A DNA stretch of 64,000 nt from Gemmatimonadales bacterium. Lineage in GTDB: Bacteria > Gemmatimonadota > Gemmatimonadetes > Gemmatimonadales > GWC2-71-9. The notes under the pieces were generated by a model, which was not told the origin of the DNA, did not search any database, and worked only from the letters and a program-made list of their open reading frames with translations. Position 1 is the first letter of the stretch, and each line of letters starts with the position of its first letter. The stretch is from assembly GCA_041613315.1 (NCBI GenBank), contig JBFJHJ010000011.1:1-64000 (forward strand), in the 5' to 3' direction. This document shows positions 22,749-42,161 of this stretch, one piece after another. The position numbers were made by a program, and so were the translations under genes.

Positions 22749-23447
22749 GTGCGAAACGCGAAGGTGATGGGACTCATCGCGGTTGGCGTCGTCGCGGCGG
22801 GCGCCGTCGCCTGGCCGATCGCCTCGCGGGTGCTCGACAAGCCCGGGGCCGCTGAGCCCGAGGCAGCCGCCCCCGCGACCCAGGACGGGACCGAGGCACT
22901 CATGTTGCCGGCCCGGACGAAGGGCCGGACTGATGCCCCGATCACGGTCTACGAGGTGTCCGACTTCCAGTGCCCGTATTGCCGCATGTTCTGGCAGGAG
23001 ACGCTCCCCGACCTCGAGAAGGAATACATCCAGACGGGCAAGGTCCGGTTCATCTTCCTCAACTTCCCGGTCCCGCAGAGCCACGCCAACGCGCCCGCGG
23101 CCCACGAGTTCGCGATGTGCGCCGCGCGCCAAGATCGCTTTTGGCCCGCGCACGACATTCTCTACCGGCAACAGACCACCTGGGCCAAGCTGAACGACCC
23201 CGCGTCCTACCTCCGGAGCCTCGCGGATTCGATCGGCCTCGATCGCAAGGCGCTCGAGCAGTGCTTCGGCGCGGGAGACGTGCGTTGGCTGATCCAGGCG
23301 GAGGCGGAGATGAGCTGGCGGGCCGGCGTCACCAGCACGCCGTCGTTTATCGTCGAGGGCGCCCTGCTCAAGGGATTCGCGCCGATGGAGGTCTGGCGGC
23401 CGATCCTCGATTCGCTCCATGTAGCCCGGACAGCGGCCAAGCCCTGA
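22749..23447 (+). CDS. DsbA-family thioredoxin-fold protein
   Basis: N-terminal TM, SDFQCPYC, GVTSTPSF. Confidence 0.9.
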   Translation: MRNAKVMGLIAVGVVAAGAVAWPIASRVLDKPGAAEPEAAAPATQDGTEALMLPARTKGRTDAPITVYEVSDFQCPYCRMFWQETLPDLEKEYIQTGKVRFIFLNFPVPQSHANAPAAHEFAMCAARQDRFWPAHDILYRQQTTWAKLNDPASYLRSLADSIGLDRKALEQCFGAGDVRWLIQAEAEMSWRAGVTSTPSFIVEGALLKGFAPMEVWRPILDSLHVARTAAKP

Positions 23448-37489: not shown

Positions 37490-37531
37490 GCCAAGTTCCC
37501 TGGCGTTCGGACCCGGGGCGCCTAATATAAT

Positions 37532-37604
37532 GGGGGCGTAGCTCAGTTGGGAGAGCGCGTGAATGGCATTCACGAGGTCAGGGGTTCGATCCCCCTCGCC
37601 TCCA
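37532..37604 (+). tRNA. tRNA-Ala(GGC)
   Basis: Cloverleaf, G3-U70, anticodon loop ATGGCAT; CCA not encoded. Confidence 0.96.
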
Positions 37605-37794
37605 TCGCCGCCGCCGCCCGGACACGCAGGCGCTTGCACGATCACGGGGAGCTCCAGACGCTCCGCCGCAGGTCAGCATGTGGCGGCGATCACGCTTGAC
37701 GCGCTCCAAGACGTGACAGGGGCGATCTCGCGATTAGATTTCCGCGTGGCGGAACGTTGAGCATCTGAGCATCGCATCGTGCGTCTGGCGTGTC

Positions 37795-37867
37795 GCGGGA
37801 ATAGCTCAGTTGGTAGAGCACAACCTTGCCAAGGTTGGGGTCGCGGGTTCGAGTCCCGTTTCCCGCT
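37795..37867 (+). tRNA. tRNA-Gly(GCC)
   Basis: GCGGGAA/TTCCCGC acceptor stem, anticodon GCC, GTTCGAGTC. Confidence 0.96.
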
Positions 37868-37928
37868 CTCGGGGGCAGGGCTCACGCCCTGACCCTTCGG
37901 ATGGAGGCGGCGGACGCCGCCGACTCGG

Positions 37929-38002
37929 CGCGGGGTGGAGCAGTCTGGTAGCTCGCCGGGCTCATAACCCGGAGGTCGTGGGTTCAAATCCCACCCCCGC
38001 TA
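37929..38002 (+). tRNA. Initiator tRNA-fMet(CAT)
   Basis: C1:U72 mismatch, GGG/CCC anticodon-stem pairs, anticodon CAT. Confidence 0.95.
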
Positions 38003-38011
38003 TTGCAGGCC

Positions 38012-38069
38012 GACGGGCGGACAGGCGGTCCGCGAGGCACCACGCCATCTGACCGCCTGCCCGCCCGTC
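38012..38069. repeat. Octamer-based inverted repeat (19-bp arms)
   Basis: GACGGGCGGACAGGCGGTC ... GACCGCCTGCCCGCCCGTC, 18/19 complementary. Confidence 0.75.
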
Positions 38070-38085
38070 CGTCTGTCCGACCCCG

Positions 38086-38159
38086 GGGCGGTTAGCTCAG
38101 TTGGTTAGAGCGCCACGTTGACATCGTGGAGGTCACTAGTTCGAGTCTAGTACCGCCCA
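38086..38159 (+). tRNA. tRNA-Val(GAC)
   Basis: GGGCGGT/ACCGCCC acceptor stem, CCACG-TTGACAT-CGTGG. Confidence 0.95.
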
Positions 38160-38163
38160 CTCC

Positions 38164-38237
38164 GCGCCCTTAGCTCAACTGGATAGAGCGTTTGGCTACG
38201 GACCAAAAGGTTGGGGGTTCGAGTCCTCCAGGGCGCA
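38164..38237 (+). tRNA. tRNA-Arg(ACG)
   Basis: GCGCCCT/AGGGCGC acceptor stem, TTTGG-CTACGGA-CCAAA. Confidence 0.95.
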
Positions 38238-38360
38238 CTGACAGCCACAATCCGCACTCGGCAGTCCGCCGACCGGCCCGTCGGGGCCACGACGTTTTCC
38301 CGACGGCTGCGCGCCCGAACACTCCGGAATGCTGATTGCGGATCGCCAATTGCCGTTGTT

Positions 38361-38434
38361 CGGGGCGTAGCGCAGCTCGGTAGCGCGCCTGCTTCGGGAG
38401 CAGGAGGTCGCCGGTTCAAATCCGGCCGCCCCGA
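38361..38434 (+). tRNA. tRNA-Pro(CGG)
   Basis: CGGGGCG/CGCCCCG acceptor stem, CCTGC-TTCGGGA-GCAGG. Confidence 0.95.
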
Positions 38435-38462
38435 CTCCGATCGACCGTCAAAGTGCGTCGGG

Positions 38463-39209
38463 TTACTTGGAAACGCTCGGGCCGGCCAGCGTGAGCGGCG
38501 CGGCGCAAACCCCCGGCGCCACCACCGCCTCCCACCACCCCTCCTCAGTCGCGACCCGCTCCGGCCGACCCTGGACCCCATGGTCCTGGGCGCCGGCCGT
38601 CACAGACGACTCGCATCCGCGCAGCAGGACACACGCGGCGATGCCGCGCAACGCTCCGCTGCACACCGCGGCACTCACCTCGACAGGATCTCCCCACATA
38701 CTCCCGGGCCGCGGAAGCAGAACGGGCACCCGAGCCGCGCGGCTCAGCTCCCAGCGCGTCCACCAACACGCAACGTCGGCGTTCACCTGGACGAACTGGA
38801 GCGGCGGCGCGTGCGGCCGGAGCGCCTCGCGAATGTCAATCCCGGAGAGGTAGCACGCGTATTCCGGCGCAGGCTCCCCCCGCTGCGGATGGTTGTGCCA
38901 CAGGGCGAGGGTGGCCACTGGGCACGAGCGATAGACCACCGAGTTGGGAGTGCTGGCATCGATCGGTGGTTGCCAGGCGAGGTCGATATAGGCGCTGTCT
39001 CCCTGCACGGCGCCGATGAGACAGCGCACCGTCTCGACGTGCAGCGTATCGGCCAACGCCCCGAGCTCGTGCAAGACATGGGGGGCGATCACGAGACGCA
39101 GCGCCTCCGCGGGCTTGGCCGCACGGGTGTCCGCCTGAGTGCTCGCCTGCTGCACACGCAGCGGGACGACGAGCGTCGCGGCCAGGACCACCACAGTTAG
39201 GCGTCTCAT
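38463..39209 (-). CDS. Exported hypothetical protein with JAB/MPN (JAMM)-like motif
   Basis: Signal peptide; ETVRCLIG; LWHNHP...LSGID; GGAG SD. Confidence 0.6.
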   Translation of the reverse strand: MRRLTVVVLAATLVVPLRVQQASTQADTRAAKPAEALRLVIAPHVLHELGALADTLHVETVRCLIGAVQGDSAYIDLAWQPPIDASTPNSVVYRSCPVATLALWHNHPQRGEPAPEYACYLSGIDIREALRPHAPPLQFVQVNADVACWWTRWELSRAARVPVLLPRPGSMWGDPVEVSAAVCSGALRGIAACVLLRGCESSVTAGAQDHGVQGRPERVATEEGWWEAVVAPGVCAAPLTLAGPSVSK

Positions 39210-39266
39210 GTCTCCAGCCTCCTGGATCCGGGCCTCCTCGGTGAGGCCCTCCAGGAGTGATGAAGG

Positions 39267-39281
39267 GCACGTTGCATGCCA
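39267..39281 (-). promoter_or_regulatory. Putative sigma54 (-24/-12) promoter
   Basis: TGGCATGCAACGTGC: GG-N10-GC, 58 nt upstream of ATG 39209. Confidence 0.5.
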
Positions 39282-39611
39282 TGCGCCGCCTCGTAGTGCG
39301 ACGCCATAAGTCGGTGCGGTAAAATGATTTATTGGATTACCACTGGACGGCAGAAGCCAGCAAGCCTGTGCCGCGTTACGGTACGGTAACTAACCTCGGG
39401 ACGGGCAGGACTCGGGCGATCGACGCCCCGGGGCAGGGGGCCCGATGCTCGCGCGGCGTTCTTTACGCGTTTGGGCTCGGCTTTACCGGGGTGTCGGGCC
39501 GGGGTACCTTCTTTGGCAGGAGCGTCGGCACGGGCTCGACTCAGGCAGCCCCGGGGAGCGGGTGGTGGATGCACATCAGCGGTGCCGTGCTCGGACTCGC
39601 CCTACCGTTTC

Positions 39612-39685
<74 letters not shown>

Positions 39686-39832: not shown

Positions 39833-41983
39833 TCATTCCGACCACAGCAGCGCCTGGAACCGTGGATCGTCCCGTAGGGAATCGAGATCGGGATCGTGCT
39901 CGATCCAGTCGCGATTGGCGAACCCCACTCGAAACGCCTCTTCCAGACATGCGATCGCCCGGTCGTGCTCCCCCTCGAGTGCGAACAGACACGCCACGTT
40001 ATAGCGCACGCTTGCGTCCTCGACATCCACCGCGAGCGCCCGCTCAGCCCACTCGAGACCGCGCGCGCGGTCCCCGATCCGGCTGAACGAGACGGCTCCC
40101 ATCGTGATCGCCCGTGCGTCATCGGGGTTGAGCGCCAGGTGCCGCTCGATCACCGGGAGCGCGCGCCGGTAGGCTGAGTCGGCCGCATTTGCTTGACCCA
40201 TCGCGGAGTAGCTCTGCGCCGCGAAATAGCGCGCTTCATGATCCTCCCGGACGCCGCACGCCTCCTCGAACAGCCGCGCCGCCTCAACCAGCCGTCCCTG
40301 CTGATAGCACGCGCGTGCCCATACGTAGCGCGCCTCGAACTGCTGCGGCTCCAGCTCAATCGCCCTCCGGAACGCGCGCTCCGCCTCTCTGTCACGACCC
40401 ATGAGCCAGAGCACGAACCCGCGGGCGGCGTGCGCTTCCGGGAGGCTCGGATCGAGCTCCAGCGCCTTCCGACTCGCCGCGTCCGCCTGCTCCAGGTTCC
40501 TGCGGCGATGGGCATCCCGATAGAGGTGGACCAGGAAGGAGCAGCAGTCCGCGATGCCGGCGTAGGCACGGGCATATCTCGCATCGACCCGAATCGCGCG
40601 CTTGAACATCTGGCGCGCAAAGATAAAGCCCTTCTTGCGGCGTTGGTGGAAGAACTGGAGCCCACGAAGGTAGAAATCGTACGCCTTCACCTCGGCCGTT
40701 GGCGCCTTGGTCACGGCGCGCCGCTCATCGTCTCGCAGCATCACCCGCAGGGACCGGGCGATACTCGCCGCGATTTCATCTTGGATGGCGAACACGTCGA
40801 CCATCCCGCGATCATACCGCTCCGACCAGAGTTGATACCCGTCCGCGACCTTGACGAGCTGGGCCGCGATGCGAAGGCGCGTGCCGGCCTTGCGTACGCT
40901 CCCCTCCAGTACGGCGTAGACGTTCAGCATCTCACCGATGGCCCGGATGTCCTCGTGCTTCGCCTTGAACGCAAAAGCCGACGTGCGCGACGCGACGCGG
41001 AGTCCCACGATCTTGCTGAGGGCGTTGATGATCTCCTCGGCGATACCGTCCCCCAGGTAGTCGTTCTCGGCGTCGCCGCTCAGGTTAACGAAGGGCAAGA
41101 CCGCGACCGCTGTGATGGCGTCGTCCTGCATCGGCGTCACGAGCGCCTCCGCGAACGCCCGCAGGGTCGCGAAGCGGTCCGCCGGTGCCTTGGCGAGGGC
41201 GGTCGTCACTGCCCGGGTGACGTGCGCGGGCACGCCCGGGCGCACGGTCACGAGCGGCGGAATGGCGTCCATCACATGGCGGGCGAGCACCGCCCGCGCC
41301 TGGCGTCCCATGAACGGCGGCTGTCCCGCGAGCATCTCATACAGCACACAGCCCAGCGCGTACTGATCGGCGCGGCCGTCGATTACCGTGTCGCCGCTCG
41401 CCTGCTCGGGGCTCATGTACTCCGGCGTCCCGATCGCGAGGCCGGCCTCCGTGATCGGCTCGTCGCCCGCTGCCGAGATGGCCCGGGCGATGCCGAAGTC
41501 CGTCACGACCGCATGGCCTTCCTCGAGGAGGATGTTCTCAGGCTTCACATCCCGGTGCACCACGCCGTGCTCATGGGCGCAGGCGAGTGCATCGGCGGTC
41601 TCACACGCCAGGGTGATGGCCGCCTCGAGCGGGAGCTGCCCCTCCCGAAGAAGGCGGTGCCGGAGCGATCCACCCGCCACGTACGGCATCACGTAGAAGA
41701 ACACGCCGTCCTCGACACCGGATTCGTGGAGCGGGAGGATGTGGGGGTGGGTGAGGCTCGCGGCGATCTCGATCTCGCGAACGAAGCGGCTGGCCGCGAG
41801 GGACGCCGAGAGGTCGGGGCGCAACATCTTCAGGGCGACATGGCGCCGATGCCGCAGATCCTGCGCCAAGTAGACGACCGCCATCCCCCCGGCGCCGAGC
41901 GGCCGCTCGACCGTGTAGCGATCGCCCAGGACCGCTTGCAGGCGGGCCAACGGGTTCGTTTCACCGGCGTTTGCGTGGGCCAC
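39833..41983 (-). CDS. Hanks-type Ser/Thr kinase with TolB_N-like and TPR domains
   Basis: GAGGMAVVY, VALK, HRDVKPEN, DFG, GTPEYMSPE; AVAVLPFVNLS; TPRs; start approximate. Confidence 0.9.
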   Translation of the reverse strand: MAHANAGETNPLARLQAVLGDRYTVERPLGAGGMAVVYLAQDLRHRRHVALKMLRPDLSASLAASRFVREIEIAASLTHPHILPLHESGVEDGVFFYVMPYVAGGSLRHRLLREGQLPLEAAITLACETADALACAHEHGVVHRDVKPENILLEEGHAVVTDFGIARAISAAGDEPITEAGLAIGTPEYMSPEQASGDTVIDGRADQYALGCVLYEMLAGQPPFMGRQARAVLARHVMDAIPPLVTVRPGVPAHVTRAVTTALAKAPADRFATLRAFAEALVTPMQDDAITAVAVLPFVNLSGDAENDYLGDGIAEEIINALSKIVGLRVASRTSAFAFKAKHEDIRAIGEMLNVYAVLEGSVRKAGTRLRIAAQLVKVADGYQLWSERYDRGMVDVFAIQDEIAASIARSLRVMLRDDERRAVTKAPTAEVKAYDFYLRGLQFFHQRRKKGFIFARQMFKRAIRVDARYARAYAGIADCCSFLVHLYRDAHRRRNLEQADAASRKALELDPSLPEAHAARGFVLWLMGRDREAERAFRRAIELEPQQFEARYVWARACYQQGRLVEAARLFEEACGVREDHEARYFAAQSYSAMGQANAADSAYRRALPVIERHLALNPDDARAITMGAVSFSRIGDRARGLEWAERALAVDVEDASVRYNVACLFALEGEHDRAIACLEEAFRVGFANRDWIEHDPDLDSLRDDPRFQALLWSE

Positions 41984-42161
41984 GGCGACCAACGAAGCAG
42001 TTCCGCAAAGTCCCGGCCGCACCCCACCCCAACGCGTAGCCTTCGCCCGATCACGTGAACCGGGAATGAATCGAAGGTGAACCACCGATTCACCGAAACC
42101 GGGGCGACGCGCGACGACGTGCCGCAAACCGCCGCGGCGCCCAACCGGTGGACGCCCGCCG

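Follow-up and report, generated by a model that had tools for sequence, protein, structure and literature searches.

We have identified a gene of a Gemmatimonadales bacterium that very probably encodes an exported, active zinc hydrolase of the JAMM fold. New here is the observation that, beyond its own clade, the relatives closest to it are found in phage-like contigs, many of them beside wall-hydrolase genes. JAMM-type zinc enzymes normally clip ubiquitin-like (Ubl) tags inside cells; the substrate of an exported clade of this size whose site is intact must be a different one. Our preferred reading, which we rate at somewhat under an even chance, is a zinc amide hydrolase in the periplasm, directed at a cross-link of the envelope, used late in phage infection and kept by some hosts. 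Computation established the gene and its fold, the conservation of its motif, leader and paired cysteines, and the phage context of its relatives. The gene lies in a stretch of 64,000 nucleotides (the window; contig JBFJHJ010000011.1, assembly GCA_041613315.1), where the following features were placed:

38463..39209, minus strand: open reading frame of 248 amino acids with an ATG start, predicted exported JAB/MPN+ (JAMM-fold) zinc hydrolase
39218..39223, minus strand: Shine-Dalgarno-like AGGAGG, 9-14 nt 5' of the ATG, seen in the sequence
39129..39209, minus strand: predicted Sec/SPI leader (heuristic), residues 1 to ~23-27, cleavage site uncertain in this protein
38694..39104, minus strand: JAB/MPN core in the model, residues 36-172, pLDDT mostly >87
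39033..39035, minus strand: E59, predicted general acid/base, present in 78/78 close homologues, role by analogy with E22 of AfJAMM (available text of PMC300881)
38889..38897, minus strand: H105-N-H107, predicted zinc ligands, from conservation
38835..38846, minus strand: S122-x-x-D125, S122 predicted to stabilise the intermediate and D125 to be the third zinc ligand, with 14 residues between H107 and S122
38766..39023, minus strand: C63, C96, C119 and C148, two putative disulfides (63-96, 119-148), from conservation and pairwise loss
38466..38663, minus strand: C-terminal extension with the C183/C193 pair, then a variable tail with C199/C235, from the model and homologue counts
37531..38435, plus strand: ancestral tRNA cluster Ala-Gly-Met-Val-Arg-Pro, convergent with the gene
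38361-38435, plus strand: tRNA-Pro(cgg)
39612..39685, plus strand: tRNA-Arg(ccg), last gene of the Ala-Gly-Met-Val-Arg-Pro cluster

Codon comparison indicates that the reading frame at 38463-39209 is genuine, a conserved Gemmatimonadota gene on which purifying selection acts. When it was compared with the homologue from one other genome (L011), differences at codon positions 1, 2 and 3 numbered 40, 37 and 84 over 165 core codons, and the roughly twofold excess at third positions marks a selected coding gene. At 0.83, GC3 ranks among the lowest 4% of the 594 genes predicted for the host, in a comparison biased by the gene caller, and is only a hint of possible foreign origin. No promoter or terminator consensus was found at the gene.

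Searches with the protein against Pfam, PHROGs and, by sequence profile, the PDB gave no match. An AlphaFold2 model was built from a 78-sequence alignment (mean pLDDT 77.8; >87 over most of the core), and all Foldseek matches listed for it were JAMM/MPN proteins. In VIA comparisons Cap3 ranked first (Z 10.7, rmsd 2.8, 126 aligned), with PfJAMM1 at Z 10.2 (rmsd 2.4, 110 aligned), AfJAMM at Z 9.6 (rmsd 2.0, 93 aligned) and RadC at Z 5.7. An ESM Atlas search led to Gemmatimonadota clusters, one with Prok-JAB on 81% of its members, and a BFVD fold search returned generic JAB proteins and nothing else. An earlier note, made from the sequence alone, had proposed a JAB/JAMM fold; for the predicted model this is borne out, the top Foldseek and VIA-align ranks all being MPN/JAB. 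The model also has a beta-hairpin at residues 83-93, at the position taken by Ins-1 in other JAMM proteins.

The motifs that the note had read are present, namely E59 within ETVRCLIG, H105-N-H107 and S122-G-I-D125. All five residues, together with C63, C96 and C119, are invariant in 78/78 close homologues. A search of all representatives gave 183 proteins at E<=0.001; from the best 150 of the 183, which were listed, 134 were aligned after 16 sequences (fragments, fusions and one spurious repeat protein) were dropped. The complete E/H/H/S/D set, whose conservation the note had proposed as a check, occurs in 122 of these 134 diverse homologues as well as in every close one. The loop between HxH and SxxD is lengthened as claimed, with 14 residues from H to S against 7 in the canonical H-x7-S-x2-D spacing (available text of PMC300881), and it ranges from 7 to 60 across the 134 members. 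Because two members keep the canonical 7 and the site is complete in 122/134, the long loop is an insertion that leaves the site intact. By analogy with the AfJAMM site (PMC300881, in the part available), in which E22 is the counterpart of E59, the residues H105, H107, D125, E59 and S122 would carry out catalysis.

Catalytic residues are lost in P0080 (L046:4893-5612), P0083 and P0087, and G127 is a genome with an intact copy as well as a degenerate one; a homologue in another genome (L061:4797-5456, G023) is split over two frames by a frameshift or a sequence error. The position three residues after the Glu (E+3), usually Gly in JAMM proteins, is R, L or V in this family. Tested against the profile Prok-JAB (PF14464), 8/134 members matched weakly (best E 0.0054), 2/134 matched RadC (PF04002) weakly, and none matched Toxin-JAB1 or DUF4329 at E<=1.

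The protein begins with MRR and a hydrophobic stretch. A crude hydrophobicity test was passed by 74/78 close and 119/134 diverse homologues as against 232/589 host proteins, and nine of the 15 diverse homologues that failed it are N-terminally truncated. A cleavage site of the form small-x-A/G, cut before Q, occurs in 65/78 close homologues and is missing from the query, for which a cut near A23 or A27 can be proposed only tentatively. Lipoprotein-like leaders were seen in 17/134 diverse members (~13%), and no Tat motif was found in the family leaders. Of the Sec-type signal peptide proposed earlier, the n and h regions and a family-wide leader (by heuristic) held up, and the family cleavage motif proved absent in the query. 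Judged from these leaders, the query and its family are probably exported.

The further cysteines that had been pointed out are confirmed and follow a pattern. C63, C96, C119 and C148 occur together in 133/134 diverse homologues; in the close set the C183/C193 pair is present in 72/78, C199 in 15/78 and C235 in 12/78. Among 16 sister-clade rows the equivalents of 63 and 96 are kept in 16/16, 119 and 148 are both lost in four, 119 has a strand-5 partner in four and a strand-5/strand-6 pair appears in seven, with one row (L075) fitting no pattern. In AfJAMM the disulfide C74-C95 joins the cysteine at the query's 119 position to strand 5 (available text of PMC300881). Since cysteines appear and vanish pairwise, disulfides and an oxidising compartment are indicated, and the four conserved residues would form the bonds 63-96 and 119-148. 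A DsbA-family oxidoreductase gene is present in the host (window 22749-23447, plus strand). The low-complexity tail that had been described did not hold up: the lowest 12-residue entropy in residues 200-248 is 2.36 bits, above the SEG trigger of 2.2 bits. This tail is variable and poorly modelled (pLDDT 46-66).

As the note had stated, the gene stands between tRNA genes, with tRNA-Pro(cgg) and tRNA-Arg(ccg) on either side. The same cluster is present in 29 other family genomes, with Pro(cgg) and Arg(ccg) <200 bp apart in 10/29, and in the 2-3 kb fetched none of the 29 relatives has a JAB gene there. The close Pro/Arg spacing in relatives indicates that the JAB gene is an insertion into the cluster, one that the query shares with one other genome (L011). 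A link to tRNA biology was considered and rejected, since tRNA genes flank 1/12 homologue loci, 0/29 relatives carry the gene at the cluster and no att-like repeat was found at the gene beyond tRNA self-similarity. The tRNA setting is incidental and uninformative on function. The cluster itself, next to a sigma-factor gene (37531-39685; L144-L172), is an insertion hot spot, followed or split by different genes from one genome to the next. Elsewhere in the window, ARAGORN called a possibly spurious 98-nt tRNA-Arg(ccg) with an odd anticodon position at 1356-1453. Upstream of the JAB gene and on its strand, beyond tRNA-Arg, lies a Ser/Thr kinase with TPR repeats (39833-42127, minus strand); similar kinases occur near several homologues, and kinases are common in the phylum.

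All 12 genome-collection loci of homologues belong to Gemmatimonadota. Within the phylum, 94/401 genomes match at E<=0.001, a tally that includes two unpublished genomes with weak matches only (G057, G157), and 37/401 match at E<1e-25. The 22 weak-match regions fetched all hold sister clades of leader-bearing JABs. No shared operon was found across 51 loci. Neither Ubl, E1 or E2 proteins nor a recurring wall-synthesis neighbour of chromosomal copies was found among 53 neighbour proteins scanned from these loci, mainly representatives of recurring clusters, with 148 singletons outside the scan. No ThiS/MoaD gene lies on the query contig; the host's three are on other contigs and are leaderless, ordinary thiamine/molybdopterin genes. 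For its Ubls the host already has a cytoplasmic Prok-JAB, encoded on another contig next to genes for a MoaD-ThiF protein and a cysteine synthase-like protein, and the host RadC is a separate gene. The earlier remark that no ubiquitin-like, E1 or ThiF neighbour accompanies the gene therefore agrees with both the query contig (for ThiS/MoaD) and the neighbours scanned.

Several sister-clade settings were also seen. In two genera, leader-bearing four-Cys JABs end an xox-like operon of a PQQ dehydrogenase, a binding protein, a cytochrome c, a pentapeptide protein and a beta-propeller protein, as a tandem pair in L065, L066, L067 and L079 and singly in L078 and L083; the tandem copies recall MPN heterodimers. 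Another sister clade (L068, L070, L072-L074, L076, L077, L080, L082, L084) has the first Cys pair only, Gly at E+3, a helical insert before the catalytic Glu and varied neighbours. A secreted TPR protein of ~470 aa adjoins chromosomal JABs at L049, L050, L053, L054 and L061, where it is a possible partner, and lies two genes from the JAB in L004/L048.

One phylum match, L064, occurs in a phage-like stretch after a Hydrolase_2 endolysin. Viral and metagenome contigs were searched with alignments of its branch, chosen by sequence and not by context, which gave 27 metagenome loci and 4 viral contigs, or 21 distinct elements by eye, one of them chromosomal. In 12 of the 20 phage-like or short elements a wall-hydrolase gene, of seven kinds in all, lies 0-2.05 kb upstream on the same strand, and in four of the 12, with three lysin types, the reading frames of lysin and JAB overlap. 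Ten of the 12 have matches at E<0.01 (Hydrolase_2, M15_3 twice, SLT, phage lysozyme, GH25, VanY and PHROG endolysins); the other two are one DUF5675 protein and one SLT fragment cut by a contig end. We take DUF5675 upstream of the JAB to be an endolysin, a role also inferred from its position. By our own estimate, at one lysin per genome of ~45 kb, chance alone would put a gene within a 2-kb stretch of this kind about 1 time in 20. The type of hydrolase varies among elements while the JAB stays. Genes resembling holins and spanins often accompany the hydrolases. A Pfam 3TM holin was found in two loci; the other holin- and spanin-like genes were called by eye and were unmatched in PHROGs. No lysin was found near the JAB in phage contigs L086, L088 and L108, five of the 20 elements are too short or cut to judge, and several contigs are of 1.6-4 kb, phage-like and not proven viral.

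The phage copies are 29-41% identical to the query. A quick tree built on 62 rows places the 12 chromosomal members of the query's clade (SH-aLRT 98) together with the 18 phage rows (SH-aLRT 91) and separates both from the other chromosomal clade. No lysis cassette is present at the query's own locus on the chromosome. Many further exported genes also occur in these phage regions (among them TIMP-like lipoproteins, an HExxH protein and an HNH protein), some with host chromosomal homologues, so closeness to a lysin may just mark a late-gene zone for exported extras. Gene position thus speaks with more certainty for a late function on the envelope side than for one in lysis itself.

Among cultured phages (50,697 records) neither P0001 nor P0159 found a match, and viral contigs gave none to the close-homologue alignment, to P0180 or to one DNA motif. 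A looser motif picked out 50 stretches of viral contigs with no family member among them, the best five being oxygenase-like; one low-GC phage (L181, L182, L187, L200, L221) has a run of ~8 small 2OG-Fe(II) oxygenase-like genes by eye. A search for longer fused forms of the JAB scored none, which is weak evidence. Three joined forms were seen: P0103 has SLT and JAB in one ORF, with a leader-like stretch between them that suggests read-through of two genes; P0111 joins the JAB to a small phage membrane protein and may also be read-through; and P0109 joins it to a C-terminal beta-rich region.

In 5/20 elements a lipoprotein gene adjoins the JAB; the predicted structure of the lipoprotein (pLDDT 83.6) is closest to OB folds of the NTR/TIMP type (agrin NtA, Z 8.8, rmsd 2.7, 100 aligned; N-TIMP-3, Z 6.3; Atlas TM 0.56), all of these scores being middling. 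The lipoprotein loci are L096:2590-3111, L113:2996-3517, L092:1250-1660, L091:943-1347 and L116:825-1220, with L117-L131. They represent an unannotated NTR/TIMP-like lipoprotein family found in phages and two host genera; 11/401 genomes carry it. An obligate partnership was rejected, as the lipoprotein is absent from the host genome (82.9% complete) and neighbours the JAB in none of the 15 chromosomal loci fetched. A role as JAB inhibitor is possible and is a lead only.

The query has the JAB/MPN fold and the order E, HxH, S, D, and departs from the exact H-x7-S-x2-D spacing. With the minimal JAMM/MPN+ isopeptidases (AfJAMM 1r5x, PfJAMM1 5ld9, Cap3 9ild, Prok-JAB PF14464) it shares the fold (Z 9.6-10.7) and E...HxH...SxxD, and with AfJAMM also a Cys three residues before the Ser (C74). 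It differs from these prokaryotic enzymes in its export leader, two to four putative disulfides, H-to-S spacing of 14 instead of 7 and lack of a Ubl, E1 or CD-NTase neighbour. It cannot be placed in the Prok-JAB group of sulfur-carrier, CBASS and Bil-Bub systems, having no Pfam match above the cut-off and no cytoplasmic setting with Ubl/E1/E2 or CD-NTase, nor among RadC-like JABs, the family showing weak matches in 2/134 and no HhH fusion. Eukaryotic JAMM deubiquitinases (AMSH/Sst2, Rpn11, CSN5, BRCC36) were the top Foldseek matches (E 8e-5 to 1e-3) and share the hairpin at the Ins-1 position; by comparison the query is stand-alone, exported, bacterial or phage-borne, 15-20% identical and has no known ubiquitin substrate. 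Tox-JAB-1 (PF15659) and Tox-JAB-2 (DUF4329) are likewise JABs that leave the cell with no Ubl system; a lipoprotein serves the former as immunity partner, and some viral members of the latter are secreted (available text of PMC3482391). Compared with them the query is stand-alone, with its own Sec leader and Cys pairs and with no RHS or delivery domain, obligate immunity gene or Pfam match. In the literature we found no description of a Sec-exported, Cys-paired JAB family or of JAB genes in lysis cassettes; secreted JABs may be among the forms tabulated in the supplements of PMC3482391 and PMC3239186.

The host wall narrows the choice of substrate. The host MurE carries DNPR, which we take to indicate the meso-DAP type; neither FemAB nor an L,D-transpeptidase was found in the host genome at its 82.9% completeness, and the latter is present in 43/101 family genomes. 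A Gly-Gly-Lys/Orn wall bridge as a ubiquitin-like substrate found no support, since the meso-DAP type MurE and the lack of FemAB make a Gly-Gly bridge unlikely in this host. By analogy with the Gly-Lys bond cut by JAMMs, the D-Ala-meso-DAP cross-link, likewise an amide on a side-chain amine, would be the simplest wall substrate. The phage lysin context of the relatives favours an envelope bond as the target in our best reading, as does the cytoplasmic JAB that the host already has for its Ubls, and an envelope cross-link is for us a tentative assignment that falls a little short of even. Against it, no wall-binding domain is fused to the JAB, the neighbours scanned around chromosomal copies include no recurring wall-synthesis gene, and the lysin link comes from relatives' loci only. 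That no L,D-transpeptidase was found in the host genome, at 82.9% completeness, tells against a protein tether. The envelope cross-link that the earlier note had suggested thus gains indirect backing from the lysis cassettes of relatives and none from the query's own locus, which has no lysin. The wider proposal of an extracytoplasmic isopeptidase or peptidase agrees with the fold, the catalytic set, the family-wide leader and the paired Cys.

Our preferred envelope reading would work as follows. The protein would be exported through Sec, stabilised by disulfides and active in the periplasm or at the envelope, where it would hydrolyse amides by zinc-dependent JAMM chemistry. Zinc would be held by H105, H107 and D125, water activated by E59 and the intermediate steadied by S122. 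The conserved hairpin may hold a short extended peptide, and the variable loop, stapled by C119-C148, may read the amine-side partner. The bond cut would be an isopeptide-like envelope amide, either a peptidoglycan cross-link at the meso-DAP side-chain amine or a protein-wall tether. Phages, in which the gene falls within the lysis cassette or directly behind it, would use it as an accessory alongside the endolysin and not as its replacement. The chromosomal query copy, of a clade next to the phage copies and inserted in a tRNA cluster, would probably serve remodelling of the host envelope, and transfer may have run towards the hosts. Mycobacteriophage LysB and the E. coli DpaA/LdtF amidase for Lpp reportedly free the outer layer from the wall. 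They resemble our proposal in cutting an envelope link, here alongside an endolysin; their folds and chemistry are unrelated, and the analogy is of function only.

The enzyme might instead be an exported JAMM-fold peptidase acting on a periplasmic or surface protein or peptide and not on the wall, a close rival that we rate somewhat below the envelope reading. Phages would then carry it as a moron-type accessory for receptor removal, superinfection exclusion or matrix escape, and hosts for optional processing or scavenging. The unrelated exported genes of the lysis-adjacent regions, also known from host chromosomes, speak for this, as do the patchy presence of the family (37/401 at E<1e-25) with no conserved operon, an HxH loop so variable (7-60 residues) that substrates may differ, sister clades in other settings such as the tandem pairs after the PQQ dehydrogenase operon, and the possible NTR/TIMP-fold inhibitor in 5/20 elements. 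The four loci that overlap a lysin reading frame, with three lysin types, argue the other way, and no candidate protein substrate recurs nearby. A reading in which the site is catalytically silent and merely binds zinc, or in which an uncleaved N-terminus anchors a scaffold in the membrane, could draw on the missing cleavage motif of the query, the three members that lost catalytic residues and the ~13% of lipoprotein-like members; E59 and S122, which do not bind metal, are nevertheless kept across 26-54% identity, and we regard this reading as very unlikely.

Two further readings keep closer to known JABs. A review of the fold (available text of PMC3239186, PMC3482391), which counts against the envelope reading, argues that JABs act as peptidases on Ubl tails alone and that the divergent ones are nucleases. 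A secreted nuclease or nucleotide hydrolase acting on extracellular DNA, RNA or nucleotides, as proposed for RadC and Tox-JAB, would follow from the inference in these sources that JABs with no Ubl partners are nucleases, and from the secretion of some viral Tox-JAB-2 proteins (PMC3482391, PMC3239186, in the parts available); an exported HNH protein in one cassette and the 2/134 weak RadC matches point the same way. The model lies nearer the peptidase JAMMs (Z 9-10.7) than RadC (Z 5.7), no member matches Toxin-JAB1/DUF4329 at E<=1 and weak Prok-JAB matches (8/134) outnumber those to RadC, all of which makes a nuclease unlikely. Equally familiar would be an exported deubiquitinase-like enzyme that strips Ubl tags from foreign or virion proteins, such as host Ubl on phage particles: all characterised close folds are Ubl isopeptidases, the hairpin is retained and phage carriage would fit counter-defence. 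Ubl conjugation needs ATP and is cytoplasmic, which makes export hard to explain on these terms; the usual E+3 Gly is replaced by R, L or V, and the host ThiS/MoaD proteins are leaderless. The scan of recurring neighbours turned up neither Ubl nor E1 nor E2; the foreign ubiquitin-like conjugate that had been suggested earlier found no support, and such an enzyme is quite improbable.

If the envelope reading is true, the family would give the wall hydrolases a new catalytic class and phage lysis a component not recognised so far, and its phage context makes the substrate question directly testable on cell walls. In its widest form, which we hold to be doubtful but worth stating, a disulfide-bonded JAMM clade may have left the ubiquitin world to become a new class of envelope isopeptidase. 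It would then be a fourth lysis-cassette component in Gemmatimonadota phages, beside holin, endolysin and spanin, restrained in some cases perhaps by a TIMP-fold lipoprotein, and would have been taken up by hosts, as at the tRNA cluster described here, in a soil phylum that is abundant and has seen little work on its envelope or its phages.
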